The notes under the pieces: model-generated
Databases searched by the model: none
The model's input: only the letters and a program-made list of their open reading frames with translations
What the model was told of the DNA's origin: nothing
Origin: a virus
IMG/VR virus record: IMGVR_UViG_3300034134_000022
Span: 1 to 64,000 of that record
Direction: 5' to 3' (one strand)
DNA length: 64,000 nucleotides
Shown: positions 3,743 to 31,899 of the stretch, piece by piece
How the letters are laid out: each line of letters begins with the position of its first letter
Numbering within the stretch: position 1 is the stretch's first letter
Program-made: the position numbers and the translations under genes

Positions 3743-4024
3743 ATGAATTTTGAACTGAAGACACCTGCTGATGGCAGGGGGAACCGAACTGCTGTGACGT
3801 TGGATGGCGTAGATTTGGGGCACGCCTGCAACATTGAACTTTTGATTCCGGCTGATGGTGTTGTGCTGCTCAAAATTGAATTTCACAGTGATGAGGAGGG
3901 GACTCTTCTGCTCAGTGGAGAAGGCAAAAATCAGCGGCTACTCACGAGAACAGTCTGCTACAGTGGCTCGTTTACTGTAACCGGGCTGGTTGAATCAATA
4001 GTGGAACCAAGCGATGGGCGTTAA
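3743..4024 (+). CDS. hypothetical protein (93 aa)
   Basis: Internal ATG (MNFELK) of track ORF 3656..4024, preceded by AAAGGA. Confidence 0.45.
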   Translation: MNFELKTPADGRGNRTAVTLDGVDLGHACNIELLIPADGVVLLKIEFHSDEEGTLLLSGEGKNQRLLTRTVCYSGSFTVTGLVESIVEPSDGR

Positions 4025-4421
4025 GTTCGACCGTACCAAGCTCAACGCTGGCATTACCAAAGCCTTTACGAAAACGGCTGAGGTGTATGCGGAGCAGCTA
4101 CAGGAAGAATTAGATACTCCACAGTGGGAGTGGACTGGCAGGAAAACAGAGCGTGAAAATGGGTCGATCGTTGGCTCTCCACGGGACATTAACGATACTG
4201 GGGAACTCTTGGACTCGCAGCAACCGGTGGTGATTGAGGAGAAGGGCGATCTGATCATTGGCACGATCGCCTATGAGTGTGACCACGCTGCCGTTGTGTA
4301 CACAGGCTGGACGGATGCTCAAGAGATCTATCCCGGTCGTGAGTGGGATAAGGCAGCACAGGAAAACATGAACGTGGCGAAACATTTTGCCAATGGTTTA
4401 AAGCAGGAGCTAGGACTATGA
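4014..4421 (+). CDS. head-tail joining / tail component, HK97 gp10-like
   Basis: 135 aa. The RDINDTGELLDSQ motif resembles the (I)VDTGxLRDS motif of the gp10 family. The gene sits just upstream of the tail tube gene. Confidence 0.45.
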   Translation: MGVKFDRTKLNAGITKAFTKTAEVYAEQLQEELDTPQWEWTGRKTERENGSIVGSPRDINDTGELLDSQQPVVIEEKGDLIIGTIAYECDHAAVVYTGWTDAQEIYPGREWDKAAQENMNVAKHFANGLKQELGL

Positions 4422-4831
4422 ACGTTGAAGCGTTGCGCGATCGCCTCCTTCTCCTTTTAGCCGATGAACTGGGCACCTACACCATTGGCAAACCGCCAAA
4501 AACTAACGATACACCCGCGATCGCTATTCAGGATTCAGGAGAGTCACGCCCCAACGATCGCGCCATCACTGGGCTAGAAATTATCATTCGGCGCAGTCCT
4601 GAGCGCGACCATAACAGCGTTTATCAGGGTGTGCAACGCAAACGGACATGGCAACTGTTTTTGGTGCAGCACCAGGGCAACCATACTCTACAGGGTGCGA
4701 TCGACAAAATGGAACTGGCGTTTCCCAATATGAGATCGGTACTCCTTGGGGCAAACCAACAGAAAAATATTCGGGAACAGGTCAGCGTCAAAATCGTTCA
4801 ACTCAGCGAGTTTGCGCGGTTACGGGGCTGA
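4418..4831 (+). CDS. hypothetical head-tail/tail completion protein
   Basis: 137 aa, ATGA overlap with the previous gene. Call is positional only. Confidence 0.4.
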   Translation: MNVEALRDRLLLLLADELGTYTIGKPPKTNDTPAIAIQDSGESRPNDRAITGLEIIIRRSPERDHNSVYQGVQRKRTWQLFLVQHQGNHTLQGAIDKMELAFPNMRSVLLGANQQKNIREQVSVKIVQLSEFARLRG

Positions 4832-4860
4832 TTGACGCTCAGGTAAGGCTAGCGCTGCGA

Positions 4861-4866
4861 GGGAAC
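4861..4866 (+). promoter_or_regulatory. GGGAAC box
   Basis: GGGAACAACACAAG, 40 nt upstream of ATG 4901. The hairpin CCCTCGCGAGGG lies at 4881-4892. Confidence 0.35.
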
Positions 4867-4900
4867 AACACAAGCGACCACCCTCGCGAGGGCTTCCTTC

Positions 4901-5794
4901 ATGTCCGCTCAAGATTTTGTAATCGGTGTAGAGACTGAAATCTACTTCGGTATCATGCCCGCTGAATTATTAGCACTGGAGACACTGACTCCACCACCTA
5001 ATGTCTTGTTGACCACTAGCGGTGCTGCCACTCAAGGCGCTGCCGTGATTCCAGTGACCGCACTGACCAAGCCTGTAGCGGCTGGCAGTGTCCTCAAGTT
5101 TGCGCCTGCAACTTTGGTGACGGTGACTGAACCTGCTACTGCCAATGCCACCAGCTTGACCTCAACAGCGCTAGGCGGTGCCATTCCTGACAATGCCACC
5201 ATTCATTTCTTTGAGGCTGGCTTCTCAGTGCAGACATCCGCTGCTGCTGCCTCTGCTGCTACAGCGGTAAGTGTCGATCCATTGCCAGTTGCGCTCCCTG
5301 ATAATGCTGTTGGCTATTACTTCTCGGCGGCTCCTAAGTTTGCTTACATCACTCAGCACGCCAAAACAGGTGACACTCAACTGGTGGTGGAACCGTTGGC
5401 AGCAGCTCTGACGAGTGGCGATATCGCGCTCCACTACGGGCTGCTCTTACTGGAAGGTGGGACAACCTCGGACGAGCAAATTCAGGCTAAAGACACCGAA
5501 TCTCAGGTGTACGGTAAGGGTCTGAAATACGCTACAGGTAAGGTGACAGGCGCTAGCTGGCAGGTCAGCTACTCGTTTAACGTGTTGCCATCTGATCCGG
5601 GTTACTTCCGGCTGGCGTATGCGGCTCAGAATGCGATCGCTGGCATTCGTGGTTGGGTCAAAAAAGTTGACCCCGTACCCGCCGGCTATACCGAAGGGGA
5701 ATCGATTCAGGGTTTGGCTGATGTCACCGATTTCTCAAAATCGAATCCAGCAGAAGGCGTGATTACGGGTAAACAGCTTTGCCCCGCACTGTAG
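4901..5794 (+). CDS. major tail (tube) protein; 3' end apparently displaced by an insertion
   Basis: 297 aa, Ala/Thr/Val-rich beta-type sequence. It lies immediately upstream of the G/GT chaperone pair and the tape measure gene. The C-terminus reads ...EGVITGKQLCPAL*. Confidence 0.5.
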   Translation: MSAQDFVIGVETEIYFGIMPAELLALETLTPPPNVLLTTSGAATQGAAVIPVTALTKPVAAGSVLKFAPATLVTVTEPATANATSLTSTALGGAIPDNATIHFFEAGFSVQTSAAAASAATAVSVDPLPVALPDNAVGYYFSAAPKFAYITQHAKTGDTQLVVEPLAAALTSGDIALHYGLLLLEGGTTSDEQIQAKDTESQVYGKGLKYATGKVTGASWQVSYSFNVLPSDPGYFRLAYAAQNAIAGIRGWVKKVDPVPAGYTEGESIQGLADVTDFSKSNPAEGVITGKQLCPAL

Positions 5795-6061
5795 TAATGC
5801 AGTGATGAAAATTCGTCCAAATCGGTGAAGGCTGAGATGCTAATACCGAGGGAAGTGCGCTAGCGAAAGCTAACACCCCGTAGAGAGCAGAGGGACTTGG
5901 ACATCCTAAAAAGGATGAAGGTGTGCTCCGAGCTATACCGAAACAGAAGGTATAGAGTTAGGCAGAAATGACCTAGCCGATCGCGAAAGCGATTAGTAAC
6001 AAATCTGAAACTCACGTTTAAAGGCCGAGGGACTCCCACCCTCAAACACTACAGCTAAGTA

Positions 6062-7396
6062 TCAGCCATCCTTGAGGCGTTTCGCTTTGAACTTGGCTAA
6101 TACTCTCGCTCGTCGTTCTGCTTCCGTTTCCCACGCTAGACGGCATTGCCATCCGGTTTTGCCATCTAGCGTTTCGCCATACACAAGCTTGCTCAAGGCG
6201 GAATGGCTAACATTATGCGCTTGAGCAAAGCTCTTAAGGCTGTTGGTCAAAAACTCATTGCCGTCTGGATCGGTGACGATATATTCTCGATTATTTTTGC
6301 GGTGTTTCAAGCGATCGTTGCGATCGTCGATCGAGTCTTCGGCATAACGAAGCTTAAACCCTTTGTGCTGAAAGTGCTTGCCCAAAGCTACTTTGGTCAT
6401 GGTTGAGCAACACAACTCATGCTCTTTGCAGAAAGCAGGTAAGCCCTCAATTTCTGCCTGCTGCCCATTAGGGAATGTGACAATATAGCGTTTGTTCTTT
6501 CCTTGCAATGCCAGCCGTTTTTGTCGAATGACTTCAGGCTCATTAACCAGTTGACATTTCCAGCCATCATGAGTTTGAAGATGAACGGCTCTAACAATAG
6601 CTGCCATCGCTGCGTAGCTCAATTCTTTATCTCGACAAAACTGTTTGAGATTCTTGACAACGAACTCGCTACCATCTGGAAATGTCACAAGATACTCACG
6701 GTTACGTCTGAGTCGATTTAATCTAGACTGATGTTCTTCTTTCGACTCGTTTGTATAACGACAACGCCAACCTTTATGCTGATCATGAATCGCTTTCGCA
6801 ACGTTAATCATCTGTCCAGCAATTAAACCGTTGTTTCTGCAAAACTTTGTCAGATTTTTAATGCTCATCTCTCTCCCTTCTGGAGAAGTGACAACATATG
6901 CCAGCGAGTTTGCTTCAGCTATCCCCTGCTTAATTCGCTCCATCACTTCTGGCGGTAAAGGGTTGTTTAATCGGTGCTGAACCCTCTTAGCAATAGTGTC
7001 AGGGCGCTGTTTTTCACCGAGTCGAGACGGTGCAATGCCAGCCCTGGCAGCAATATTAAAACTTCTGTTTTTAGAGCCAACACCTCGAAGATCAATCCAG
7101 GTTTGTTCATGTTGGAGAGCTTGCCCTGGTAAGCAAAGCTCCAGAATGTGAAACGAGAAAGGCTCTGCACCGTAGCGATCGTAGTGTTTTTGCAGAATGG
7201 GCGAGTGGTGAATGCCACGCTGTAGCTCCTTTACATGGCGGTTGAAGCGAGAGCGGAACCCAAGCCCAGCCGCAGAACCAAAATAGACGAAATCATTCAC
7301 GCTGCAATGAATGGCATACACCCCAGTAGAAGTAGGCACAGCCTTCAACGACTCGTGCAGCGGAAAACCCGCCGCTAAAAACGGTAAGTTAGACAA
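6062..7396 (-). CDS. GIY-YIG homing endonuclease with four tandem NUMOD-like DNA-binding repeats
   Basis: GIY-YIG signature GVYAIHCSVNDFVYFGSAAGLGFRSRFNRH. Four ~50-aa repeats of the form Y(I/L/V)VT.P.G.E..(I/V).(N/G)L..F(C/A)......(L/I)......(HKGW/HDGW/KTGW) follow. TTG start with AAGGAG 6 nt upstream. Confidence 0.8.
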   Translation of the reverse strand: MSNLPFLAAGFPLHESLKAVPTSTGVYAIHCSVNDFVYFGSAAGLGFRSRFNRHVKELQRGIHHSPILQKHYDRYGAEPFSFHILELCLPGQALQHEQTWIDLRGVGSKNRSFNIAARAGIAPSRLGEKQRPDTIAKRVQHRLNNPLPPEVMERIKQGIAEANSLAYVVTSPEGREMSIKNLTKFCRNNGLIAGQMINVAKAIHDQHKGWRCRYTNESKEEHQSRLNRLRRNREYLVTFPDGSEFVVKNLKQFCRDKELSYAAMAAIVRAVHLQTHDGWKCQLVNEPEVIRQKRLALQGKNKRYIVTFPNGQQAEIEGLPAFCKEHELCCSTMTKVALGKHFQHKGFKLRYAEDSIDDRNDRLKHRKNNREYIVTDPDGNEFLTNSLKSFAQAHNVSHSALSKLVYGETLDGKTGWQCRLAWETEAERRARVLAKFKAKRLKDG

Positions 7397-7443
7397 AGTT
7401 GCTCCTTTGGTGGATCAAAGTGAGTGATTAGCGATCGTGTTCT

Positions 7444-7449
7444 GTTCCC
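7444..7449 (-). promoter_or_regulatory. GGGAAC box (minus strand)
   Basis: TGGGAACA on the - strand, 53 nt upstream of the endonuclease TTG start at 7396. Confidence 0.25.
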
Positions 7450-7518
7450 AGCAGAGTGCGATCGCGCTTGTACTATTTTACCCTGAAACCCCTGTCTGTA
7501 TTACGTTTTGGCTCTTAT

Positions 7519-7560
7519 CAAACAAAAAGCTCATCTAAATCTAGATGAGCTTTTTGTTTG
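7519..7560. terminator. strong bidirectional hairpin terminator
   Basis: CAAACAAAAAGCTCATCTA, loop AATC, then TAGATGAGCTTTTTGTTTG. This is a 19-bp perfect stem with T-runs on both strands. Confidence 0.7.
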
Positions 7561-7618
7561 GCAGTCGCAGTTGAGCAAAAGGACTGTCTGATTCATGGTT
7601 CCTACCATTGCGTGAGGT

Positions 7619-16600: not shown

Positions 16601-19600
16601 TAGCAAATGGCATTACTACAGCGCTGACAGGTGCCATTGATGGGGCTGTCAACGCTGCCTCAGCAGGGATTGCTCAGGCAGGCGCGGCAATTTTGGGGGG
16701 CAAGGCAATCCAGACGGTTGCAGGCCGCACGATCGGCGGTGCGGTCCAAGCCACAGGGCTAGCAGCACTACCACCATCGACAGCCAAAGCACTACCACCC
16801 GCACAGACGGATGTAGAAGCCATTCCTGTCACGGTGGAAGCGGTTCCCCAGCGAGCGAAAGCAAAACAGCTTCCACCCGTTAAACCTGCCCAGCCAGCGC
16901 CTAGAGAAGGGCGAGAAGGGCTGTTTCAAGACCTCAATGAGCAATACTCCGTTGAGGGACTGCGAGAAGTTGCCAAGCGCCTGGGCCTTACCAGTAAACG
17001 GTCACGCAGCCTGAAGAAAGAAGATCTTGCTCGTGAGCTGTCTTCCACTGATTTTGGCGTACCGATCGATAAGGTGCTGGCTGAAGTTGGCGACAGTGCC
17101 AAACTCAAAGCTTTCCAAACGGGTAGTCAGGGCACCGTTCCCAAACTGCCAGCCGAGGCATTGACCTCAATCAAGTCAGGCAGTGAAAAGTTAAAGCAGC
17201 TCTACAAACAGTTTCAAACGGCTCAGGGGCAGCAACGGCTTGTCCTGGCACGGGCGATCGCCACTGAATCTGACCAGCAGGTTGCCGCAATTGATCAGGC
17301 ATTTAAAGAGTTTCAGGTTGAAGGTAAAACCGCACAGCAGTTAGCTGGACTGCGAACCCAGTTGACGCAGCGATCGGAGCTACCACGATCGGAGGCACGG
17401 AACGCGGGACGACAGCAGATTCAGGAAACCCAACGCCAGGGCAGCAGCTCAAGGGCCGTGCAAACCGTTAACGCAACGGTGGTGGATGTTTCATCAGGAG
17501 ATGACCTCAACTCAGCAAATCTGCTCAATACATTGCGTGAGGGTAGCCAGGTTGTCAGTCGGGAACTAGGTAATGCAATTGAGCGGTTTAACGAAGCACA
17601 GCAAACCCTGGCAGACACCATTAACACTCAGGTCGCTCGATTTGCTGAAATTGAACCGGAGGCAACGTTGCCTGCCACCTTGCAAAAAGCGGCTGGCACA
17701 CCGAAGGGTAAGGATTTACTGGTCAACACGGCTGGGTTCGCTGCCTCGATCGCTGGCAATCAGTTGGGTGGTGCCGCTGGTGGACTGGCGGGGGATTTGA
17801 TTGGAGCGCTAGCCGCTCGCAATGCTCTCTCAGGGGGGCAGTTCGGTCAAGGCGATGATCTGTTTGGTGATCTCGCTGGGTTTGCGATCGGTAACGGTGC
17901 CGCTGCCCTGGGAAGTATGGTGCCGGGTGTGGCTGGCATTCCCTTTAAGGGCGCAGCCGTCGCGATGGCTGCCGTGCCTCAACTGACCAAATTGCGGCAA
18001 CGCATTCAGGGCCGATTGGGAGAAGACGACGAGGCAAAAGCCAGTGGTGATGATTTAGCAGCTGCTAACTTGACCAGTGGCGCAACGAGCTTAAAACGCA
18101 CGCTGACCAGCAAATCGCGGCAGTTGCTTTCTCAGTTAGAGAAACAGCTTGGGGACACGATCGACAGCCTTGCCCTGGCATTCTCCAGCGATAAGGATTA
18201 TGCCAGCAACGCGGGACAGCAGGAAATTCGGGCACTCAACCAGCTCAACCAGACCGTTGAGCGGTTATTAGAAGAGCGTGGGCAGATCATCAGCGAAACG
18301 TTTGACGCGGAGATGACTCGCGCCAACCAGGAATTACTGCAAATTGGGGCACGAATTGCGGCAAAGACCGAGGCACGTCCCGATTTTGGCTTGCTGGCAG
18401 ACCGGGCGATCGACGATGGCACTCAGGCAAAGTCGCAGCAGGTCGTTGGCGAGAATCAGCAAGAGCTGCGAGCTAACAAACGACGTGCGTTTGAGCTGGA
18501 GCGTAAGACCGGAGTGGTCGCCGATGCCAGCCTGACTCGCATTGAAGACCCGATCGCTGGTAGCGATCTTAAGGGTGTGTTTGGCACGCTGCGAACCGTC
18601 TTCAAAGGGGTGCAGACCGATATTCGTGCGGCTGTCACCAGGCAAGCAGAAGCACTGACGGTTGAAAGTAAGAGCCTGCTCAACGACATCCGCAGCAGTG
18701 AGGCAGTTGCCAAAGGGTCAGGCGATCAGACGCAGGCGAAGCGGTTGGGTAAGGCAGGCGATCGGGCTGAAAAGGCGATCGCGGGTTCCGAAGCGATCCT
18801 TGCCAAGCCGACCAGCGCTCTCACTGACAAGGAAATTGCCAAGCTGCGGGAGTACCGCAAAGAACTCCTCAGCGTTTACAAGTTGCTCGATCGACCCCTG
18901 CCAACGCCTGCCGCCAGTGGTGGGGCCAGTGGGTTTGGTCAACTGCTGGACGTATTCGGCAAACTCAAACCGCTGATTGGGCCCGTCCTTGCTGGGCTGA
19001 TTGGCTTCCAGGGGTTGCAGTTTGCCACTACGCAACTGAAAGATTTTGTTTTTCAGGCAATTCAAGCCTCAATCAAGCTGGACAACCTCAAAACGGCGCT
19101 CAATTTCGCTAGTGGCAGTTCCACTGTGGGGGCGCAAAACCTCGCTTTTGTTAGAGGAGAAGTCGAACGGTTGCGAGTGCCCCTGTCAGCCGCACAGGAG
19201 GGCTTCGTCAAGCTGGCAGCGTCTACCCGTGGCACCAACAGTCAGAGCGCAACCAAGCCTTTGTTTACAGGCATTGCGAGTGCCTCCACCGTCTTAGGGC
19301 TGACCAGCGAAGAGTCAAACGGCACGTCTCTCGCCTTTTCTCAGATTGCTTCTAAGGGCAAGGTCTATACCGAAGAATTACTCCAGCTCCAAGAACGCAT
19401 TCCCAGCTTCATGGCAACGGTGCAACGGGCATTGGGGCTATCCGGTGCTGAATTGTCGAAGGCGCTACAAGCAGGGGCGATTTCTGCCGATGAATTTCTG
19501 CCCAAGATTGCGCGGCAATTGCAAGTGGAGTTTGGTGGGGCAGCCGTTGATGCTTCGAAGAATGCGCAATCGGCTATTTTCAACGTTCAGAACAAATTTC

Positions 19601-22600
19601 TGGAGTTGCAGCAGTCGGTTGGTGCAGCGTTTGGTCCTGCACTGATTGTTGGCGCAAATCTGCTAGGCAAAATTCTCGAAGGCATTGCTCAGAAAGCGGC
19701 AGAAGGCGCAGAGGGCATCAACAAAATTTCGGCAACGCTGGGTGTGATTCTGACACCGATCAACGCGATCGCCAGCCGTCTAGCCACAATTCCAGGCATC
19801 GGTAAAGCGTTTGAAGTGGCGATGAATGCCGTGCTGGCAGTGCTCGCCACGATCGCCGCCAGCGTTGCTGTGAGCTTGCTGGGCAAATTACTGGCGCTAC
19901 CTGCGATCGCTAAAGTCATTGCGGCTGGGTTTAGCGCGATCGGTGGGTCGCTGGCAGCCGCGTTTGCCGCACTACCTGCCCTACTAGCGAAATTCTTCTT
20001 ACTGCAACTGGCGGTGGAAGCCGTTACAGGCGCATTGAGCGTCTTTGTGCCGTCTGACCTGGGCAATCAGTTTAAGGGGTTTGCAGACCAGGCAGAAGCC
20101 AACCTAAAGCGCATTGAGGATGCGGCGAAACGGGCTAAGGGTGAAGTTCAGGGTGTTGCCCCACCGGAAGAACTGCCGTCTGAAGGGCCAGATATCGGCA
20201 AAGTGCTGACGTTTGGTGCAGCCAGCTTCAAAACTGACGATCTGCTCAAAGGCATCAACGGCGCTCAAGAGAAAGTAAATCTGGCGTTTGGGGCTGACAA
20301 AGATTACGGCAAAGTAACCACCCTTGCTGAAAAGAAAGGTCAAAACGATGTTTTAGAAGCCACACGCTTTGGCGATAGCGCCCGCGCCCTCAGTGGGCAG
20401 GTGTTTGAGGGTGATTTAGGGATTAAGGCAAAATTGCTTGGAGTGGCTGATCTGGATAAACAGACCCAGGCAGTGCAAAATCAACGCGCCCTTGCTGCCA
20501 ATAAGCCTCAAGCAGACAAAAATGAAATTGCAGGCCTTGACAAACAACTGGCAGAACTGAACGCCAAGCGCGAAGCCGCCTCTGCGCCATTGATTGAGCA
20601 ACGGGGCGCTATTACCGCTCAACTCAATAATGCTAAAGCAGGATTGCAGGCGATCGACGCCAAAAATCTACCTGTTGAGCAAGCCAAGTTACTCAAAGCT
20701 CCGTTTGAAGAGGCTGTTAGCCAGTTGGAGAAGGCTCAGGCTGCAATCAATAAGTTTGAAGGGGGCATCAAAACCTCAGTCAGCGCCGGACGTGAACTGA
20801 CCACCACCTTTACTAAACTGGCAACCGAGTTGGAAGAAGCGCGACGAATTGCCGATCGGGTCTTTAACCAGAGTAGCCAGAACATTCTGAAGCAGCAGTT
20901 TGCCAACTTCACCAAAGACCCTCGTGCTGCACAAGTGGCAGCCGTTAATCAGTCAAAAACTGAGCAAACCCGCTTGCAGGCACAATTTGACGCAGGACAA
21001 ACCACACTTGACCAGCAGGAAACGGCGCTGAAAGGGGCTGACGCTCAGACATTACTGGGCACAATTCCCATTGGCAATTCTGGCAAGACGGTGACAATTG
21101 GTTCCTCTCTGGCTGAGATTGAGGAAGCGTTGAAAGGCACACCAGATAACCAAACGGACAAAAAAGCCATCCTGGAGCGCTTGAAAGAGTTTCGTGAAGG
21201 CACGGACAAGCAACAACAGTTGGGCACTCAGGTTGAGCAAGCACGAGTTACAGTGCAGAAAACCGAAGAGTCCTCAGCATTAGCAGATATCGATCGCGAT
21301 GCTGGCAAGCGTGACCAATCGCTGAAGCGAGATGATGCTAAACGGGCTATCCCCATTCGCCAAGACAACGCTGCACTAGCGAAGGAACGGGCTGAATTGT
21401 CGCAGGAACGGGCTAGATTGTCGCAGAAGCGCGCTGGTCTGACGCTGGACAAAGCTAATAACAAGTTCTTCAGTGAAGCCGATGCGGGTATTGTCGAAGC
21501 CGATGCGGGTATTGCTCAAGCCGATTTAGGAGTGAAGACGGCTCAGACTGGCGTTGATGAAGCCGATTTAGGAGTGAAGACGGCTCAGAACCAGGTTGCA
21601 TCAACCAATCAGCGCCAAGCCAACACTCAGCAAGCGTTAGACGATTTGACCAGCCAGAAAGGCAGAATTAGCGCTGAAGAATATAACAAACGGCAGCGAG
21701 AGTTAACGACCCAGCTTACTGAATTACGGTTAGAGGGTGCGAACGCTGCTGTTGCTGTAGAAGAGGCGCTAGCGAAAAAGGTTGAAGCAACCTCAGCGAA
21801 GTCGGAAGCCTCTGCCGCCAAATCGGAAGCCTCTGCGAAAAAGGTTGAAGCGCTGAACCGCAAAATTCTCGAAGGGTTGGAACTAGCCAACCGTCAAGCG
21901 GGTGCGGCGATTCAGCTTAGTGCGACGAACGACACCACCGCTGTTAAACAACAGCTTGCGAGTCAGTCGATCGCCGAAGAAGACACACAACCCAAGCTCA
22001 ACGCGATCGCGACGGCTCAGGCATTAAGTGAAGGGGAGCAAATTAAGAAGGAAATCGCTCAGAATGCCCAGCTAGAGCGGGATAAACGCCAAACCAAAAA
22101 AGAGACCATCCTGAAAGCGCTGGAACTCAACCAGAAGTTAGCAGAGTCTAATCAGAAGGTGGTTGACCTCGAACTTGAGCGCCAGAAACTGGTGCGTGAC
22201 CTTGCCATCAAAGGCATTGAAGACCGCATGGCGGCAACGCAAGAGGCATCTAACGAACAGCTTGCCGCACTCGATCGTGAGAAAACGGCGATTGTTGAAA
22301 TTGGGCAGAAAGCGCTGGAGCTGCAAACTACCCTACTTCAGAGCAAAGGCGATTTGCAAAAGTCGTTGGATGCCCTGGCGACATCAAAACTAGAGATCAA
22401 GGTCAAAGTTGCTGAGGAAGGCGAAAAGTTACTGGGTACGGTCAAGGACCCGCAAGCCAACAGCCGAGTTAAGAAGGTTGCGCGACGACAACTATCTGAA
22501 CTGGGCTTTAGCAGTAGTGCCAAGGAAGGCGACCTGGCGGATGGTCGGCTGAAACTGGAGCAACAGTTAGCGGTGCAGAAGCAGGCAGCGCTACTGCGTG

Positions 22601-23754
22601 AGCAGGGCTTGCAGCAGCTGCTGCTAGAGATTGAAATTAAGAAACAGGAGTTTGCCGCTAAGTCTGCCCAGTTCGAGGCGCGGAAAAATGTGCTGTTGCA
22701 AGAGCAGGCGATTCTCCAAGCAAAAAACAATCTGGACAAGGCGAAGGAGCTAGCGCCAGGGCGGGAACGCGATCGGGCGATCGCCGCTGCCTCCAGCGAC
22801 CTCAGCATCGCTCAGAAGGGACTGGGTAATGCTCAGGAGTTGTCAGGGTTGGCTGATCAGCAGTTTGCATCAGTGGGTAAGAATGCCGACCTACAGCGTC
22901 GGGCGCTCGGTGCAAAGCAGCAGAATGAGTTAACCAATTTTCAGGCGGATCAGCGTAGCCGACTGCGTGGTTCTGAACTGGAACGTGCTGGACTCAAGGG
23001 GAATCAGAGTAGTTTTAATTTCAAGAATGCTGCCAAAGCCTTCTATGACGGCACGGCTGTTCAAGGGCTAGGAACTGGTAGCCAAGGATCAACAGTCAAG
23101 GGTCAGCAGATTGATGCAAACGGCAATCCTATTGCAAACAGTGCCTCACCAGGAGGTGGTAGCGATGTGCTCAAGGTGTTAAACGAGCTAGCAGGCTTCT
23201 TAGCTGAAGTGTTCGGGCGCTTCGATACCTACCTGAAGGCAACAGCAACAGGCATTATCAAAATGAGTGGTCTAAGAGTAGACCCTAAAAAACCGATCAA
23301 CCCCTTGCTCAAGGGACTTGCTAAAAATGCGGGATTGGGGCTGCTGAATGGCGACGATGAGGTAGACCCAGCAGAGGTAACAAGCAAAGGCGAAGTGCAA
23401 CGCAATAAAGGGGTGCAATCGGGCAACTATGCGGCAATGAATCGCGCTTTAAAGCTTGGCGGTGGGAGCAACGACGATCGAGGTCTGCGAGACACGTCTA
23501 GCGTCTTTTCACTTCAGCAAAGTGCACCTACACCTGATAGCAGCAGCGGTGTGGTGGAATCTAGTTCTAGCGGCAAAACAGAATCATTCAATAGCGAACT
23601 GATTGGCTTTTTAGGGACAAAATTGGATCTGCTGAATGCCAACATTGAGCGACTGGCAAACACACCAAGAGCGATCGCCTTCCATTCTCAGCAACCAGTC
23701 GATGATTACGCAGACTACCAGAATCGTAATACTGGCAACCTACTAAGGGCTTGA
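13645..23754 (+). CDS. tail tape measure protein (3369 aa)
   Basis: Follows the G/GT chaperone. Core tape-measure region: LKTALNFASGSS...TSLAFSQIASKGKVYTEELLQLQERIPSF...AISADEFLPKIARQL. A long hydrophobic Ala/Gly/Leu block follows, then extensive coiled coil and tandem repeats. Confidence 0.9.
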   Translation: MTEVVGSAAIELRLDQSRFNRELRDLETLQLKPIALGLQLNLPQLQQQLKGVRLESIAVGLNADTSSLQKQLQAFSATLTVKAVLDTTTVDRQLKAYAGERTLKLTARVDDRELTALNKHLDLKQKHFAQVNEAFKATPLTPRVDLRQLEALDGRLKSIQKRYDIDVNFRVDAGALRSQISAIDVPVILRYANTQPLGALTQKVEIDSKGIETSLGNSVEQAFKKVRGGGLFSGFGSLITAPLRLAGSGISTILGGLTLGATQEVSRNLGKGLSTAFEGALSKSVGSSELLGAKVGGAIGSAVVQEFQTQTQTIAQVLEKQIDKIQDTKLRKKLKENLKSVVELPGQVGQAVIGTIGQDTVTREGLFQRGQQRQAQAAKTPVAREEAVAAFRELIATSKSVEARATQSKATLDRQIQTRQREVTEVGKRYEQLAIAIQQAEVGGAKTEDLAPLASELSATAQDFQALSQSLGTLVQARDVASKAVQEAKQGRVAARQQLDQVSPEQQPRAFTELAQSTLGESFDAEKLPKLVVDEARLKASGAGSLYVPAENAIITTNKIYDAVLKQALTQQQADTLGEEIAHAEDFDFGSFKGIQAARENRPIGQRVTPTNEEAARFAPELGRYAQEKREAELNAKVKGARGAQDYLQRQDRLQVVSEASDVAVQGEKFTAPARKAVFKEALITLKQEAAKRFTESDQSIDQFIGSYKASLTEIESIAQRAAQSAGSATREEVAGLQQEMNAAIASLSSVFDAVGTEIRRVQAIAPEEALQEKQQQIAGLLKQFNKKELVPLAEQVGVQDAGKLKKKDLIQQITSTADIRQLEPKVFDLTRAKAQQQLEQRAAGAQTVGSVARGAADLAGATAGKVQDIAASAPVQGVVQAAGTAGKVMLAVGKAGYKIASGMESLALDLVPAGRAIKGIAQQTVVPAALFAGATAFIPGGAGVAAGLSHVVGGVASPLLHAAGAGATDAASSAIAGHIPNAFGLANGITTALTGAIDGAVNAASAGIAQAGAAILGGKAIQTVAGRTIGGAVQATGLAALPPSTAKALPPAQTDVEAIPVTVEAVPQRAKAKQLPPVKPAQPAPREGREGLFQDLNEQYSVEGLREVAKRLGLTSKRSRSLKKEDLARELSSTDFGVPIDKVLAEVGDSAKLKAFQTGSQGTVPKLPAEALTSIKSGSEKLKQLYKQFQTAQGQQRLVLARAIATESDQQVAAIDQAFKEFQVEGKTAQQLAGLRTQLTQRSELPRSEARNAGRQQIQETQRQGSSSRAVQTVNATVVDVSSGDDLNSANLLNTLREGSQVVSRELGNAIERFNEAQQTLADTINTQVARFAEIEPEATLPATLQKAAGTPKGKDLLVNTAGFAASIAGNQLGGAAGGLAGDLIGALAARNALSGGQFGQGDDLFGDLAGFAIGNGAAALGSMVPGVAGIPFKGAAVAMAAVPQLTKLRQRIQGRLGEDDEAKASGDDLAAANLTSGATSLKRTLTSKSRQLLSQLEKQLGDTIDSLALAFSSDKDYASNAGQQEIRALNQLNQTVERLLEERGQIISETFDAEMTRANQELLQIGARIAAKTEARPDFGLLADRAIDDGTQAKSQQVVGENQQELRANKRRAFELERKTGVVADASLTRIEDPIAGSDLKGVFGTLRTVFKGVQTDIRAAVTRQAEALTVESKSLLNDIRSSEAVAKGSGDQTQAKRLGKAGDRAEKAIAGSEAILAKPTSALTDKEIAKLREYRKELLSVYKLLDRPLPTPAASGGASGFGQLLDVFGKLKPLIGPVLAGLIGFQGLQFATTQLKDFVFQAIQASIKLDNLKTALNFASGSSTVGAQNLAFVRGEVERLRVPLSAAQEGFVKLAASTRGTNSQSATKPLFTGIASASTVLGLTSEESNGTSLAFSQIASKGKVYTEELLQLQERIPSFMATVQRALGLSGAELSKALQAGAISADEFLPKIARQLQVEFGGAAVDASKNAQSAIFNVQNKFLELQQSVGAAFGPALIVGANLLGKILEGIAQKAAEGAEGINKISATLGVILTPINAIASRLATIPGIGKAFEVAMNAVLAVLATIAASVAVSLLGKLLALPAIAKVIAAGFSAIGGSLAAAFAALPALLAKFFLLQLAVEAVTGALSVFVPSDLGNQFKGFADQAEANLKRIEDAAKRAKGEVQGVAPPEELPSEGPDIGKVLTFGAASFKTDDLLKGINGAQEKVNLAFGADKDYGKVTTLAEKKGQNDVLEATRFGDSARALSGQVFEGDLGIKAKLLGVADLDKQTQAVQNQRALAANKPQADKNEIAGLDKQLAELNAKREAASAPLIEQRGAITAQLNNAKAGLQAIDAKNLPVEQAKLLKAPFEEAVSQLEKAQAAINKFEGGIKTSVSAGRELTTTFTKLATELEEARRIADRVFNQSSQNILKQQFANFTKDPRAAQVAAVNQSKTEQTRLQAQFDAGQTTLDQQETALKGADAQTLLGTIPIGNSGKTVTIGSSLAEIEEALKGTPDNQTDKKAILERLKEFREGTDKQQQLGTQVEQARVTVQKTEESSALADIDRDAGKRDQSLKRDDAKRAIPIRQDNAALAKERAELSQERARLSQKRAGLTLDKANNKFFSEADAGIVEADAGIAQADLGVKTAQTGVDEADLGVKTAQNQVASTNQRQANTQQALDDLTSQKGRISAEEYNKRQRELTTQLTELRLEGANAAVAVEEALAKKVEATSAKSEASAAKSEASAKKVEALNRKILEGLELANRQAGAAIQLSATNDTTAVKQQLASQSIAEEDTQPKLNAIATAQALSEGEQIKKEIAQNAQLERDKRQTKKETILKALELNQKLAESNQKVVDLELERQKLVRDLAIKGIEDRMAATQEASNEQLAALDREKTAIVEIGQKALELQTTLLQSKGDLQKSLDALATSKLEIKVKVAEEGEKLLGTVKDPQANSRVKKVARRQLSELGFSSSAKEGDLADGRLKLEQQLAVQKQAALLREQGLQQLLLEIEIKKQEFAAKSAQFEARKNVLLQEQAILQAKNNLDKAKELAPGRERDRAIAAASSDLSIAQKGLGNAQELSGLADQQFASVGKNADLQRRALGAKQQNELTNFQADQRSRLRGSELERAGLKGNQSSFNFKNAAKAFYDGTAVQGLGTGSQGSTVKGQQIDANGNPIANSASPGGGSDVLKVLNELAGFLAEVFGRFDTYLKATATGIIKMSGLRVDPKKPINPLLKGLAKNAGLGLLNGDDEVDPAEVTSKGEVQRNKGVQSGNYAAMNRALKLGGGSNDDRGLRDTSSVFSLQQSAPTPDSSSGVVESSSSGKTESFNSELIGFLGTKLDLLNANIERLANTPRAIAFHSQQPVDDYADYQNRNTGNLLRA

Positions 23755-24279: not shown

Positions 24280-27200
24280 CCATCAACCTCAGCATTCGCA
24301 ATTACTCACTGGATGTTGCAGGGCTGAACTGCACCGATCCACTGGTGAGTTTTTCGGGCAGTGATAGCAAAATTGACCAATCTGGACTGATCACCTTCAC
24401 TGGCAATCTCGTCTTAGGCAGACCAGAGGGCATTTTTGAAAGCCTGGACGATCGCAAGAATAGCCGCTGGAGCCAGGGCAATCCGGTCGGTTTATTGCTT
24501 GCTGACAAGGCTGGCACACTGCGATCGCCGCCACGTTGCGGCAGTTTGTTTATCCTCGAAAGCAGCTACAGCCCGAAATCACGCAGGTTGACACTTCAGT
24601 TGGGCGATTGGCTGAGTCTGCTAAAGGGGAAAGAGCCGATCGGCAATGCTTCTAAAATTTGCCTGGGCACCAGCACTTCTAAAAGTGGGCTGATCAAAAC
24701 TTTGCTCAAGGCTGCTGGCATACCCAGCGAATTGCAGATGATCGCTGTACCTGGGGCAATTAGCGCCCCTGCACCGCGATTACTGGAGGGGAGTTATATT
24801 GACCAGGCTGGACAGGTAGCAGCCTCTAGCGGCTATTTTCTGTACGTTGAGAATGGGGTGGTTCGTTCAAGGGCGATCGACGCGCAGACCACTACAGCCG
24901 TTGTGCGAATCGATGCAGGTCAGGTGGTTGATAGTGAGCGCGTGGCAGGTCAGGTGCCTGCTGCAAAGCTCATCGTGCAGGCGCAATGCAGCATAACAAC
25001 GCCTGCTAGAGATTCCTATTCAGCCTATGCAGAGCAACGTGGTCCTGCCCTCGTTGCCGGTGTGCCCTCTGGTGCTGACTCCGCTCCGGTGGGTGAGATT
25101 GTGCTGAAGCGCACTCAAAAAAGTGACAACTTTAATCGGGGTGCAAAGACTCGCGAAATTACGAGCCAGATTGCTCAGTGTCTCGGCATTCTGCTACCTG
25201 AAGATCCCGATTTTGCAGGCAGTACAGCCCTCTCTACGGGTGAATATCGCAGAGAAACGCACTACTACGAAACAAATGCACCGCTGACCAGCGTGGCGGG
25301 TAGCCCTGCCTGCCAGCAAGGGAATCAGGGGCGGCGGCTGCGAACGGTGATCGAGCTGTACAAACTGCGCGGGGTAGTGCTGCGAGACGTGTTGGCAACC
25401 TATCCAGCCGAGGAAGTGGGCGATAAGACGATACCCCTGCTCGCAGAAGTGGAAGAGATCACTTATCGGTATGACCTGGGGCAAAACTTTCAAACGACGA
25501 TCGGCAGCCCTGACGACTGGACACCGACACCGTTGGGGGATGGTCCCGAAATCACAACGCGCAAATTTCAGCCAGTGGGTGCGCTGTGCCCTAATGAGTT
25601 TGCTTACGAATCGGTGCTGACTAACGCGACTCGCATGGTCGAATGCGATCGCAAGCTTGAGCGCTGGGTCGAGAACCATCAGGGCGAATGGGAGAAATCA
25701 ACGCAGCAGTATCAATCGTTGATTCTGGCTAGTTCTAATACTGCTGAGGTGTTGCGCTCCACAATTGAAGATCTGGCGACACTGGTCGATGCCCTCACAG
25801 CGCTGTCCGTGGGCGAGGACGAAAGCGAATTTTCTAATGGTGGACAATGCCAACCCTCTGCACCAACAACTTACCCCGCTGCCTTTGCGACCACTGAGAA
25901 AAGCGTGAAGGGGATTGCCAAGCTACCTGCTAATGCTTCGACACCCTATCGCCAGCCTGAGCAGAGTTTGAGTTTTAGCTATCTCAACAGCACATCAAGG
26001 GCAGCCGCTCAGGGCGATGCGACCCGACTGGCGAAACTGTGGGCCCCGTTGCTGTGGGGGCGCTACAAAGCCGTTTCTTACACTACCGACTTGGCGGATG
26101 CATGGTTTGGGTATGAGCCCCTGGCGCGAGTGGATGCGGTTGAGGAAGACGATCGGTTTGCTTATTTGGGCGATGGCTTTGCGCTGGCGATCGCGGGGAT
26201 GCGTTGCGTTGTGAGCATTGACGGTCTTTACTTGGGCTACTTGGGTGCTGATTACACTGAGCCTGACACTACCCCCCCGATCGACGTTGACCCAGAAGAC
26301 CCAGAAGCAAGCTACATTCCCGGTGCAGTGAACATTCTGCCGCCTGAAGTAGTGCCTCCGTATGTCCAAACGAGCAGCATCGAGGGCGCGCAGGGACAAG
26401 CCGCAAGACTCAGCTATCGACTGTACACACTAGACCCACTGGAGTTGCCTTTACAGACAGCGCAAGGGCAGGCAGGACAACTCACGCTCTCACTGACAGA
26501 GCCGCGCAAGCTTCAGAGCGCCCAGGGTCAAGCAGCACGACTCACGGCAACAGTGATACTGCCGTTGTTAAAAACGCTGCAATCAGCTCAGGGAGAAGCG
26601 GCAAGACTGTCAATGATTAGTAGCAGTATTGGTTACACCGCACCTACGTCTTACTGGAACTTGCAAACCGATGGTAATGATAGTGCAGGGGCTTTGAACC
26701 TTACAAATAATGGTGTCGCCTTCGGCTCAGGCTATGGGTCTTTTGACGGTGGTGATAGCCTTTCTCGGAGCAATAACACCGCTCTGCAACTAGGCAGTGG
26801 GGATTGGACAATCCTGACTTGGGTTTATTTTGACTCGCTTTCTAGCTACACTTGCATCCTTTCTAAAGGCGTTAGTGGATATGGAGAGTACGAGATCTTG
26901 GCTGATCCGTATGGTGGGGGTTTCTACGTCAGCACGTACCGGGCTGTCACTGGCGGTTCCGACTATGTTCGAGTAGGCAACACAGCCCCAGCAACCGGAA
27001 CTTGGCACTTCCTTTGTGCCCAGTACATTGCTTCTAGTGGGACGTTGCGAATCTCGCGCAATAATGGCGCGTTCAGCAGCCTCGTTGTTGGTGGGCCACC
27101 ACGCACCCTTGACGGTGCGCTAACGCTAGGCGCTCAAGGTTCTGAATACAGGCTAAACGGCAGAATGCGGTACACAGGGTTGTTTAAGGGCGCTGTGTTG

Positions 27201-28334
27201 CCTGACGATGCGATTGCCTACTACTACAACAATGGCAACGGTAGAGCTTATTCAAGCAGTGCCGTTCCAGCGACTGGTGGGGGAAGTGTCGATCGCTCAA
27301 CCTTAAATCCAATCACCTACACGCCTACCTCTATTGGTGAGCAAGCCTATCTCTTTGGTAGCGATAACTATAACCCTAGCAAGCTGATTGATGGGAACAT
27401 CAACGACAGCGGCATGATTGCGGATGTCCCTAATGGTGGGGCGTTTGATATGCTGCTGACTGCCGCTCAACCCTTCTACCTGAATCAACTCACGATCTAC
27501 ACAGGGCAGTACAACGGCTCATACAACACACCCACACGACTCCGCATTTACGCCGATCAAGCTCTTACTACGCTCCTTTATGAGACAACTTTGACGCTCT
27601 ACTATTGGGGAGCGCAAACCAAGGATCTAAGCGCTGTGACAGCTCTCGACACGCCATTAAACGCTTATGTTGTTGTTTTAGATCAGCATCCTGGAGCCTA
27701 TATCTCGGTGCTGGAACTGCAATTATTTGGGGCTACTGCCTCTGCTGCCTCAACTGGTGGAACGGGTGGTAGTAGTGGAACGGTTGCATCTGGTCTTTAC
27801 TCGTCAACGCAGGTTGCGCCTCTAGGTTCGGCGGGAATGACCAATATCTACACAGGCTCCGTAGATGATGCCAATATCAACATCGGTGATCTCGGTTTCG
27901 ACTTCCCTTATTACGACGCGACATACCGCAACAACGTTTTCATCGGCTCAAACTCCTATGTCACGTTTGGGTTCGGCTCCAGCAATTATTCTGGGTTATC
28001 ACGCACAAACCCAGGTAGAGCATTGCATCTCGGTTCTGCCGATCGCGGCTATCAAAATGTGTTTGTCAAGGCTAGCAATGGCTCGTACAGAGTGCGCTAC
28101 GAGGGATCGCCAGGTACAAGCGGCTCTAGTTCACGCTTCTTAGAAATCACCTTCTTCCCAGATGGCACGATGATGGTAGCCAGAAGCACCCCTGACAATG
28201 GGGGCTTGTGGACTGCGACGAAGGGCGATGGAACTAGCTATACAGACTTTGCACCAACGACTGAAACATCGTTCGTCGTTCAGCCCAATGCTGACCGCAC
28301 AGCCTACACGGTGCAACCAGGCTCTTACAGCTAG
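24276..28334 (+). CDS. tail tip / host-specificity protein with LamG and galactose-binding-like domains
   Basis: 1352 aa. Four AQGQAARL modules. LamG_3 pattern: WTILTWVYF...TGTWHFLCAQY..SGTLRISRNNG. Discoidin-like stretch: SKLIDGNINDSGM...TRLRIYADQ. C-terminal FDFPYYDATYRNNVFIGSNSYVTFG module. Confidence 0.65.
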   Translation: MTINLSIRNYSLDVAGLNCTDPLVSFSGSDSKIDQSGLITFTGNLVLGRPEGIFESLDDRKNSRWSQGNPVGLLLADKAGTLRSPPRCGSLFILESSYSPKSRRLTLQLGDWLSLLKGKEPIGNASKICLGTSTSKSGLIKTLLKAAGIPSELQMIAVPGAISAPAPRLLEGSYIDQAGQVAASSGYFLYVENGVVRSRAIDAQTTTAVVRIDAGQVVDSERVAGQVPAAKLIVQAQCSITTPARDSYSAYAEQRGPALVAGVPSGADSAPVGEIVLKRTQKSDNFNRGAKTREITSQIAQCLGILLPEDPDFAGSTALSTGEYRRETHYYETNAPLTSVAGSPACQQGNQGRRLRTVIELYKLRGVVLRDVLATYPAEEVGDKTIPLLAEVEEITYRYDLGQNFQTTIGSPDDWTPTPLGDGPEITTRKFQPVGALCPNEFAYESVLTNATRMVECDRKLERWVENHQGEWEKSTQQYQSLILASSNTAEVLRSTIEDLATLVDALTALSVGEDESEFSNGGQCQPSAPTTYPAAFATTEKSVKGIAKLPANASTPYRQPEQSLSFSYLNSTSRAAAQGDATRLAKLWAPLLWGRYKAVSYTTDLADAWFGYEPLARVDAVEEDDRFAYLGDGFALAIAGMRCVVSIDGLYLGYLGADYTEPDTTPPIDVDPEDPEASYIPGAVNILPPEVVPPYVQTSSIEGAQGQAARLSYRLYTLDPLELPLQTAQGQAGQLTLSLTEPRKLQSAQGQAARLTATVILPLLKTLQSAQGEAARLSMISSSIGYTAPTSYWNLQTDGNDSAGALNLTNNGVAFGSGYGSFDGGDSLSRSNNTALQLGSGDWTILTWVYFDSLSSYTCILSKGVSGYGEYEILADPYGGGFYVSTYRAVTGGSDYVRVGNTAPATGTWHFLCAQYIASSGTLRISRNNGAFSSLVVGGPPRTLDGALTLGAQGSEYRLNGRMRYTGLFKGAVLPDDAIAYYYNNGNGRAYSSSAVPATGGGSVDRSTLNPITYTPTSIGEQAYLFGSDNYNPSKLIDGNINDSGMIADVPNGGAFDMLLTAAQPFYLNQLTIYTGQYNGSYNTPTRLRIYADQALTTLLYETTLTLYYWGAQTKDLSAVTALDTPLNAYVVVLDQHPGAYISVLELQLFGATASAASTGGTGGSSGTVASGLYSSTQVAPLGSAGMTNIYTGSVDDANINIGDLGFDFPYYDATYRNNVFIGSNSYVTFGFGSSNYSGLSRTNPGRALHLGSADRGYQNVFVKASNGSYRVRYEGSPGTSGSSSRFLEITFFPDGTMMVARSTPDNGGLWTATKGDGTSYTDFAPTTETSFVVQPNADRTAYTVQPGSYS

Positions 28335-28335
28335 T

Positions 28336-28341
28336 GGGAAC
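28336..28341 (+). promoter_or_regulatory. GGGAAC box
   Basis: GGGAACCACACAGC, 39 nt upstream of ATG 28375. The hairpin CAGCAG-N14-CTGCTG spans 28346-28371. Confidence 0.35.
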
Positions 28342-28374
28342 CACACAGCAGAAGATATTTAATCGCTGCTGAAC

Positions 28375-29076
28375 ATGGCAACCCGTACAAACGCTTGGAT
28401 TAGCTACGTTGAACAATTACTGTATCGTGGTGTGGGTGTTGCGCCTCATCCGAGCAAGTTTTACCTATGCGCTTCTGCTAGTGCAGCCCTGACCAGGGCA
28501 AGCGGCTTTGCAGACTTTATTAGAGCCGAGTTGAAGCCTGAGTTTGGTTATCAGCGGCAACAAGTTTTGTGGTCGGGCAATGGTACGTATAGCAACACTA
28601 ATCAACGTCACGAACTCCCCACAGTGACGACGACCTGGACAGCGGCAAGCGGCACATTACAATTTCAAACTGTCTTTTTGCTAGCCAATGCTCACAGCAA
28701 AGCAAGTGAGTCCTTTGCCCCTAGTAATGTTTCTGGTAGCACAATCACGATCGCAGGTAACTTGCTAGCCAATGGCGACACAGTGATTCCGGTCGCTGAT
28801 GCAGGTTCAACGCTGCCGGGGAACCTTGTCAGCAACACCGCTTACACAGCAATCAACGTCAATAGCGGCACAGGAGCATTCCAATTTTCGAGTGATGGAG
28901 TGAACCCGATTACACTCTCAAATGCAGGTTCGGGAACGTTCCAGTTGAGGTATGCGACAGGGGTTGTGGTCTTGCTGCAAGTGGAAGCCAATGCCGTTTC
29001 CTTGCAGACTGGAAGACCCGTACAGTATGACATTGACCTTGTGGGGATGAATGCAGCGTATGGCTCAGGAGTTTGA
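28375..29076 (+). CDS. tail fibre-associated protein
   Basis: 233-aa ORF in the tail-fibre block. Call is positional. Confidence 0.45.
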   Translation: MATRTNAWISYVEQLLYRGVGVAPHPSKFYLCASASAALTRASGFADFIRAELKPEFGYQRQQVLWSGNGTYSNTNQRHELPTVTTTWTAASGTLQFQTVFLLANAHSKASESFAPSNVSGSTITIAGNLLANGDTVIPVADAGSTLPGNLVSNTAYTAINVNSGTGAFQFSSDGVNPITLSNAGSGTFQLRYATGVVVLLQVEANAVSLQTGRPVQYDIDLVGMNAAYGSGV

Positions 29077-30652: not shown

Positions 30653-30656
30653 AACC

Positions 30657-30941
30657 ATGAACGCATTACAACTACTACGCCAAGAGCAAGCTGACAACCG
30701 CCAACGGTTTGCACAGAAGCAGAAAGCGGCTGACGAGGCAAAGCAGGCACAGCAGCAGTATGCAGGCGCTTACTTAGGCAAGAATGCTAACAATAATGCG
30801 GGTCTAGTGCTGCTGGATGGCTCCAGCTCTCCGATCGAATGCGAGATTTTGAGCGATCGGCTGATTCCGGCAGGGCGCAGGGTAATGGTATCGCTACCTG
30901 ATGGTGCTAGTAAGGGCTTTATCGACGCGCCGACAACTTAG
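30657..30941 (+). CDS. stand-alone copy of the fibre N-terminal domain
   Basis: MNALQLLRQEQADNRQRFAQK aligns with FDALKLLRQEQAANRDRFARK of the previous gene. Start is the internal ATG of track ORF 30609..30941. Confidence 0.5.
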   Translation: MNALQLLRQEQADNRQRFAQKQKAADEAKQAQQQYAGAYLGKNANNNAGLVLLDGSSSPIECEILSDRLIPAGRRVMVSLPDGASKGFIDAPTT

Positions 30942-31888: not shown

Positions 31889-31899
31889 GGCTGAGGGCT

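Follow-up and report, generated by a model that had tools for sequence, protein, structure and literature searches.

The first 64,000 nucleotides of the viral record IMGVR_UViG_3300034134_000022 (positions 1 to 64,000, hereafter the window) contain a tail-tube gene that is interrupted near its 3' end. An initial annotation of this sequence had explained the interruption by a single 1.7-kb group I intron carrying an antisense GIY-YIG homing endonuclease gene. Our analysis favors a different anatomy, which we consider quite probable: two separate selfish elements lie at the 3' end of a siphovirus-type tail-tube gene. The first is a 237-nt group I intron devoid of any open reading frame (ORF) (5771-6007, + strand), the removal of which restores the conserved C-terminus of the protein. 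The second is a ~1.5-kb cassette (6059-7561) that holds a free-standing endonuclease gene and begins right after the stop codon of the tail gene.

The true 3' end of the tail-tube gene

As initially annotated, the ORF of the major tail protein spans positions 4901-5794 and encodes 297 aa, with a C-terminus reading ...GVITGKQLCPAL*. Homologues of this ORF form 30 clusters, and their alignment shows that the uninterrupted ones are ~9 residues longer and all terminate in ...ITG-x-C-TFKGRGxPxxxHYx*. The window's counterpart of this conserved C-terminus is found at 6008-6058 and reads KLTFKGRGTPTLKHYS*. It was matched by the spliced protein in a tblastn search (6008-6055), and it aligns with ...KCTFKGRGTPTLGHYS* of the homologue P0002 (89% identical) as well as with all uninterrupted homologues. 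It is intact and in frame, and its stop (TAA, 6056-6058) falls at the ancestral position. Since this is where the missing C-terminus lies, the interruption is 5771-6007 (237 nt), flanked on the + strand by exon 1 (4901-5770, ending ...GVITG with GGT at 5768-5770) and exon 2 (6008-6058). Joining 5770 to 6008 gives a 306-aa protein, co-linear with P0002 and of the same length. The spliced junction would read ...ATTACGGGT|AAACTCACG..., and the predicted junction-specific peptides of the spliced product are KLTFKGRGTPTLK and LTFKGRGTPTLK, while the unspliced counterpart ends ...ITGKQLCPAL. For annotation purposes, the real tail-tube protein would be the one of 306 aa, and the version proposed by gene callers is too short. 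Indeed, 6 of the 30 homologue clusters (the window's own and 5 of the 29 others) are truncated by gene callers at one of two intron sites.

These results change the reading of the region downstream. The comparison with relatives lacking the insertion, which the initial annotation had proposed, shows that uninterrupted homologues end as 6008-6058 does and not at the equivalent of 5794. The stretch 5795-6061 had been described as non-coding, which is not true of all of it because 6008-6058 encodes the conserved C-terminus; the repeat GAGGG-N7-CCCTC (6027-6043), listed among the hairpins of that stretch, falls in exon 2. The frame at 7486-7548 does read KPLSVLRFGSYQTKSSSKSR*, but no homologue has anything like it as a continuation of the tail protein. 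What was taken there for a displaced ancestral 3' end is simply the non-coding edge of the endonuclease cassette.

The identity of the gene was established through its fold. The AlphaFold model of P0002 (mean predicted local distance difference test score 85.7) matches the tail-tube proteins of T1, lambda (gpV), monocin, 80alpha and SPP1 with a Foldseek probability of 1.0. The tail protein found no matches in a Pfam search and its profile had no match among PDB sequences, so that only the fold comparison succeeded. Downstream of the gene lie two chaperone-like genes, followed by a 3369-aa tape-measure ORF. On the basis of the model, the gene interrupted at 5770 is a siphovirus-type tail-tube gene. 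The final pair of beta strands in the P0002 model is built from residues at the interruption and beyond it, and the 297-aa unspliced product ending in QLCPAL would be predicted to be without these two strands of the tube fold. At the nucleotide level, a search of a phage collection with positions 4000-9000 of the window gave no match.

The 237-nt insert as a group I intron

Every helix of the conserved group I core (P3-P8, the P4-P6 domain and the P3/P7 pseudoknot) could be placed in the insert. The 5' splice site, after U5770, lies inside P1 (5767-5773/5778-5784, GGGUAAA/UUUGCCC), in which U5770 forms the U.G wobble with G5781 of the internal guide. The initial annotation had recognized this 5' splice site and the intron behind it, although not its size or its 3' end, and had correctly noticed that TTTGCCC (5778-5784), which is indeed the P1 guide, can pair with GGGT|AAA. 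The other helices, all on the + strand, are P2 (5787-5793/5798-5804, GUAA loop), P3 (5812-5818/5893-5896 plus 5899-5901), P4 (5822-5827/5844-5849), P5 (5831-5832/5839-5840), P6 (5850-5852/5877-5879 and 5855-5857/5874-5876), P6b (5861-5864/5869-5872, GAAA loop), P7 (5883 and 5885-5889/5924-5929, with A5884 bulged), P8 (5902-5906/5913-5917), P9 (5933-5939/5949-5955), P9.1 (5957-5962/5972-5977) and P9.2 (5979-5984/5989-5994, GAAA loop). Four hairpins that had been picked out by eye at 5861-5872, 5902-5917, 5933-5955 and 5980-5993 exist and correspond to P6b, P8, P9 and P9.2, and the strings thought to be R/S-like are actually J7/3-P3' and the 3' arm of P9. The S-like element of the intron is AAGGUGUGCUCC (5918-5929). 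P7 (GAGCA/UGCUC) is two compensatory pairs away from the canonical GACUA/UAGUC and retains the bulged A and the G-C/A-U pairs; the putative guanosine-binding pairs that follow A5884, G5885-C5928 and A5886-U5927, align to the canonical positions in Rfam. Two candidate pairings were discarded along the way. A hand-drawn P3 (GUCCA/UGGAC) gave way to the register UUCGUCC/GGAC-uu-GGA, which fits better because 5812 co-varies with 5901 (C-G, U-A, G-C), and the S-like AAGGTATAGAG was dropped as P7', being the 3' arm of P9.

The 3' end of the intron is equally well defined. Its tail, AGUAACAAAUCUG|AA, aligns with AGUAACAAAUUG|AA of related introns in rtcB genes (see below) and places the omega-G, the last intron nucleotide, at 6007. 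The tetranucleotide AAAC is present at both junctions (5771-5774 and 6008-6011), and 5770/6007 is the only choice of ends for the insert that obeys the U/G rule. The minimum free energy of the intron is -76.4 kcal/mol (z = -4.57), and the corresponding fold contains P2, P4-P5, P6b, P8, P9, P9.1 and P9.2.

Covariation was studied in an alignment of 84 distinct copies of the intron, the window's own included, on a hand-built structure comprising P1-P9.1 and the P3/P7 pseudoknot. Standard pairs occupy 94.6% of the alignment cells, versus 34-45% when partners are slid by 1-3 columns; both sides have changed in 33 of the 59 pairs, and none of 500 shuffles matched the observed covariation. Double changes are seen in P2, P3, P4, P5, P6, P8, P9 and P9.1. 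The window's insert keeps all positions that are invariant in the family, and all its helices are paired. A second tail-gene allele with the same intron, in the truncated contig L003, is also informative: its exon reads ACT GGT in place of ACG GGT and its guide GCCA in place of GCCC, turning the exon-guide pair from GGGU/GCCC into UGGU/GCCA, and its P6b has gone from UAGC-GAAA-GCUA to UGGC-GCAA-GCCA. Likewise, the guide is UUU in the window versus AUU in the rtcB introns, matching an exon 2 that begins with AAA versus AAU. From its sequence, we infer that the 237-nt insert is a group I intron capable of splicing, and it appears to be functional in the context of the tail gene. The pre-mRNA would fold into P1-P9.2, an exogenous guanosine would attack after U5770 while it is paired with G5781 in P1, and the freed exon would then attack after omega-G6007, with the same UUU guide keeping the AAA of exon 2 (6008-6010) in place (P10). 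The spliced mRNA would be translated into the 306-aa tube protein ending in KLTFKGRGTPTLKHYS, and the unspliced one into the 297-aa product ending in QLCPAL.

Some results on the fold point the other way. Covariation is uninformative for P7 and for a large part of the core, which do not vary within the family. The search with Rfam Intron_gpI (RF00028) that the initial annotation had suggested yields a full-length alignment, including P1 with its U.G pair, when the 271-nt region is searched alone, but its score is 18.1 bits (E = 0.015), below the gathering score of 50 bits. At the gathering threshold, Rfam has no match to a group I intron in the whole window, and 0 of 15 tested members of the intron's family reach it. 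A search of 2.3 kb at E <= 10 gave no group I match either. We read the sub-threshold score as a limit in the sensitivity of the model and not as evidence against the fold: the rtcB-type lineage escapes Rfam altogether. The introns of a canonical lineage found in tail-tube homologues (see below) score 83-92 Rfam bits.

This low score would also suit a different explanation, in which the insert is a non-intron, transposon-like element that duplicated AAAC and truncated the tail protein at QLCPAL, or else a decayed intron or pseudogene in a defective prophage. A 4-bp AAAC duplication (5771-5774 and 7486-7489) had been put forward as an alternative for the larger 1.7-kb insertion, a version that is unsupported; AAAC is also found at the real 3' junction and does flank the 237-nt insert (5771-5774, 6008-6011). 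However, the rtcB copies of the family have other flanks and no such duplication, and the insert conserves every invariant position of the 84-copy alignment with all helices paired. Exon 2 is intact, in frame and ends at the ancestral stop position, the exon and the guide have co-evolved by compensatory changes in L003, and the residues lost would be two strands of the modeled tube fold. We therefore regard a non-intron or decayed insert as very unlikely.

A free-standing endonuclease cassette

The endonuclease gene (6062-7396, - strand; 444 aa, TTG start) is located outside the intron, past exon 2 and its stop (6056-6058). With 3 nt between it and this true stop of the tail gene, it is free-standing and runs convergently. 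Consequently, no phage intron contains an antisense endonuclease gene here. The GIY-YIG domain is N-terminal (residues ~25-104; Pfam PF01541, 25.4 bits versus a cut-off of 22.6), the motifs GVY...VYFG...R...E are readable in the sequence, and the protein matches the PHROG homing-endonuclease families 2081, 314, 7168 and 5123. Four repeats of ~65 aa are found C-terminal to the nuclease domain. The initial annotation had identified both the domain and the four repeats; its location of the gene inside the intron does not stand, nor does its description of the repeats as NUMOD-like, as Pfam gives no match of the repeats to NUMOD, I-TevI DNA-binding or other models. It was also right that the gene has its own translation signals, with a Shine-Dalgarno AAGGAG (7402-7407, - strand) five bases ahead of the TTG.

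The limits of the cassette come from the relative L001, whose tail protein is 89% identical and which has neither intron nor endonuclease. In L001 only ~112 nt separate the tail gene from the next gene, and alleles of this type read ...ATTACAGGCAAGTGCACGTTTAAAGGG.... Direct comparison of the sequences shows that homology resumes at 7562 of the window (gcagtcgcagttgagc), corresponding to 6937 of L001, so that the whole cassette, 6059-7561, replaces ~15 nt of L001. It contains the endonuclease gene, a leader with the AAGGAG, which in the predicted fold is paired inside a small hairpin, and an A/T-flanked hairpin at the far edge that resembles a bidirectional terminator. This hairpin, first given a 19-bp stem at 7519-7560, is real, with 20 bp spanning 7518-7561 (-29.8 kcal/mol and z = -7.7 on the + strand; -28.6 kcal/mol and z = -8.4 on the - strand). 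The G+C content of the cassette is 46.8%, versus 52.0% in the window. By these comparisons, the endonuclease cassette is itself a mobile unit, separate from the intron.

With this information, a single 1.7-kb group I intron (5771-7485) containing the antisense GIY-YIG gene, with exon 2 from 7486, becomes hardly credible. The P1 guide on which the proposal relied is real, T5770 and G7485 do obey the U/G rule, and AAAC follows both. But the peptide encoded from 7486 matches no homologue while 6008-6058 matches all of them, and the family alignment, together with the conserved 3' tail, puts the omega-G at 6007. Moreover, 6059-7561 is a separate indel relative to L001, and among relatives each of the two, intron and endonuclease, is also found in the absence of the other. 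Although G7485 and the AAAC of 7486-7489 can both be seen in the sequence, they do not mark a 3' splice site, and the supposed exon 2 runs into the 20-bp hairpin.

Some other features of the cassette and its surroundings deserve mention. The + strand of 7397-7470 forms two strong hairpins (-32.6 kcal/mol, z = -5.4) and has a weak match to the Rfam family symR (an antisense antitoxin; 29.7 bits versus a threshold of 61). This structure could reflect translational or antisense control, or arise by chance from HIP1-like palindromes. A terminator-like hairpin with a T-run is found on the minus strand inside the intron (5876-5892), and endonuclease transcripts entering the tail gene would meet it; such sites are as numerous in the region as expected by chance. 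Also, the region is devoid of HIP1 sites from 5633 to 7458, as had been noticed, but this gap is not significant and cannot be taken to indicate a foreign origin: with 1.8 sites expected, the probability of finding none is 0.16.

Distribution among relatives and an insertion hot spot

Homologues of the endonuclease (37-63% identity) are always encoded directly downstream of a tail-tube gene, and the neighbor on the other side varies: P0032, P0033, P0036, P0037 and the one in L172 each adjoin the 3' end of the tail-tube gene. All four combinations of presence and absence occur. Intron and endonuclease are found together in the window, L160 and L161, the endonuclease alone in L166, L168 and L172, the intron alone in L002 and L165, and neither in L001, L169, L173, L294 and L295 (L171 is the same sequence as L165, and L170 the same as L169). 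The endonuclease is hence optional at a fixed position, present in the relatives of the first two groups and absent from the 7 loci of the last two.

The introns of L002, L160, L161 and L165 are of another lineage, a canonical one, and have no BLAST similarity to the window's intron; a search for their close relatives in viral contigs yielded only generic core similarity. In L161 (6437-6687, - strand) and L002 (2521-2750, + strand) they are inserted after ITG (ACNGGT|), at the same nucleotide position as in the window, and in L160 (6397-6634, - strand) and L165 (4652-4888, + strand) 12 nt upstream, after ADG (GACGGT|). Both of these sites follow GGT. Three independent intron insertions have occurred within 12 nt, beside the cassette. 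A further clue comes from L161 (7548-6386, spliced) and L166 (6030-5119), which are 91% identical across the tail gene but 64-76% in its last 70 nt, where serine and arginine codons switch families and the protein is nearly unchanged. Their endonuclease genes differ (448 aa vs 351 aa). Judging from the sequences, a divergence of this kind marks a recombination boundary at the end of the gene where the intron and the endonuclease lie.

An intron lineage at home in rtcB

An 18-mer of the intron core retrieved 156 loci from viral, genomic and metagenomic collections, nearly all of which hold a full homologue of the window's intron, with 72-84% identity. Across P2-P9.2, the nucleotide identity of the rtcB lineage to the window's copy is 72-89%. 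Informative 5' flanks are available for 139 loci, and in 137 of them the intron interrupts rtcB at ...G(S/T)LGGG|NHFIE..., the identity of the gene being backed by the Pfam RtcB model (E = 9e-89). The only tail-gene members of the family are the window and L003. The hosts include many cyanobacteria, Acidobacteria (Pyrinomonadaceae), Armatimonadota (Chthonomonadaceae), Firmicutes and human-gut jumbo phages. The loci of the rtcB lineage (L004-L159; for example L102:1996-2223, L090:5228-7004 and L151:8462-8712) share one rtcB position. Many rtcB copies have a LAGLIDADG ORF in the P9 region; at these loci we found no relative of the window's endonuclease, but LAGLIDADG genes instead. Our literature search found no paper describing group I introns in rtcB.

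Within this family, the window's intron nests among cyanobacterial copies, the nearest being L092 and L123, with 88.7% core identity. HIP1 occurs 64 times in the 64 kb of the window, a density that fits a phage or prophage of cyanobacteria, and the window contains no second copy of the intron or of the endonuclease gene, and no rtcB gene. The window's intron and the rtcB introns have the invariant core and the 3' tail in common. Unlike them, the window's copy is ORF-less, resides in a non-homologous phage gene and has a retuned guide. The insertion sites, GGGGGU|AAUCAC in rtcB and ACGGGU|AAACUC in the tail gene, only have GGGU|AA in common. Because its relatives are almost all in rtcB, and the nearest ones are cyanobacterial, we propose that the intron probably moved ectopically from a cyanobacterial rtcB into the phage tail gene, the simplest history for these sequences. 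Reverse splicing and double-strand-break repair are possible routes for such a move. Good evidence for the ectopic movement of group I introns is still wanting according to the review literature (PMC3984707). Our data provide a clean circumstantial case, with ~89% core identity between introns of non-homologous genes and a compensating change in the guide.

Are the two elements partners?

An ORF-less intron and an adjacent free-standing endonuclease, each found alone in relatives, match by analogy the pattern of collaborative homing, of which a few other phages already provide examples. In S-PM2, the group I intron of psbA and the adjacent free-standing F-CphI constitute such a case (Zeng, Bonocora and Shub 2009, per PMC6083498 and PMC3984707). 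There, as in the window, the homing endonuclease gene lies directly beside the intron-bearing gene and intron-less relatives exist. The differences are that F-CphI is Endo VII-like and its host gene is psbA, while the window has a GIY-YIG nuclease beside a tail-tube gene, encoded convergently 3 nt past the stop. Also, cleavage of the intron site and protection by the intron have been demonstrated for F-CphI, and for the window's pair they are predictions. A second case is the trans homing of I-TevIII in T-even phages, involving the nrdB intron and mobE (Bonocora and Shub 2009; PMC2790892). It resembles ours in that a free-standing endonuclease beside the intron-bearing gene is thought to mobilize the intron by co-conversion, and differs in that MobE is an HNH enzyme and the T4 nrdB intron holds a defunct internal endonuclease gene, while the window's intron is without any ORF.

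Tail-tube genes have been invaded by group I introns before, as the intron-bearing orf142 of the Staphylococcus phage Twort is a tail-tube gene (PMC11878797). Twort is, however, a myovirus of Firmicutes with three introns of an unrelated lineage in the gene and no adjacent free-standing endonuclease involved. As for the enzyme, it is similar to the free-standing Seg proteins of T4 (intronless homing) and to I-TevI in having an N-terminal GIY-YIG domain and a modular, presumably DNA-binding C-terminal region, and in the presence/absence polymorphism of its gene between conserved genes. It is unlike them in that the NUMOD and I-TevI DNA-binding models of Pfam do not recognize its repeats and, compared with I-TevI, in that its gene is outside the intron. 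What is new here is the GIY-YIG enzyme, the siphovirus tube gene, the clustering of three insertions within 12 nt and an intron lineage probably borrowed from rtcB. Should the two elements act together, theirs would be, to our knowledge, the first candidate collaborative homing with a GIY-YIG enzyme and a structural gene.

If the two elements do cooperate, the process could be as follows. In a mixed infection, the nuclease would cut the genomes of endonuclease-less relatives in or near the coding stretch ...ITG|xCTFKGRG..., and repair from the window's genome would copy the cassette into the cut relative. The intron would be co-copied because its site is only 54 bp away, and, by splitting the target of the nuclease, it would protect its own genome. 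We give a functional link of this kind, a collaborative (trans) homing pair, close to but somewhat less than an even chance. The indirect hints in its favor are the 54-bp proximity, the clustering of the three insertions and the recombination signature. If true, the window would represent a further natural candidate for collaborative homing, and the four combinations found in relatives make the link directly testable.

There are data that weigh against such a partnership. Intron and endonuclease show no statistical association, the intron being present in 3 of 6 endonuclease carriers versus 2 of 7 non-carriers. Three carriers have no intron, and therefore the intron is not generally needed for self-protection. 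A promoter scan upstream of the endonuclease gene found nothing credible. The idea that endonuclease carriers could be told by a Thr-to-Ser change immediately 3' to the intron site was rejected, since L294 has the change and no endonuclease.

These data leave a sizeable, if minority, chance that both elements are real and yet functionally unconnected neighbors. The target of the nuclease would then be elsewhere nearby, or the nuclease would be defunct, and the intron would be immobile or spread only as RNA, through reverse splicing. The lack of association among the four combinations, the three endonuclease carriers without any intron (L166, L168 and L172) and the fact that the rtcB relatives of the window's intron travel with LAGLIDADG and not GIY-YIG genes all speak for independence. 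On the other hand, the 3' end of the tail gene is the sole constant neighbor of the endonuclease family, 54 bp separate the intron site from the cassette, three independent introns have landed in 12 nt right beside it, and the signature of recombination lies exactly at the intron/endonuclease end. Besides, the accepted psbA/F-CphI and nrdB/mobE cases show a like scatter of combinations.

A bolder version of the partnership, which we hold to be rather unlikely, is that the endonuclease makes the ...ADG IITG xCTFKGRG... stretch a recurrent break site, and that, on repeated occasions, introns unrelated to each other were captured at it as protective patches. The canonical lineage, with its two positions separated by 12 nt, and the host rtcB lineage with its retuned guide, would be instances of such capture. 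If this were true, the locus would document a natural instance of an intron transposing ectopically from a host chromosome to a phage, into a gene not homologous to the one it came from, and would illustrate the first step of the pathway proposed to lead to mobile composites of intron and endonuclease.

Other features of the window

The ORF in the tape-measure position (13645-23754, + strand) is a single one of 3369 aa, which implies an unusually long tail; its counterpart in L001 matches TMP_3. Between the chaperone-like genes and the tape measure, the window has a 988-aa ORF (9973-12939, + strand) with Laminin_G_3, OAA-lectin, ricin-B and PLAT domains, while in L001 the chaperones are directly followed by the tape measure, with no such ORF in between. 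Last, the 8 kb from 26187 to 34222 lack HIP1 sites, in a window that averages one per kb, and this stretch may have a different origin.

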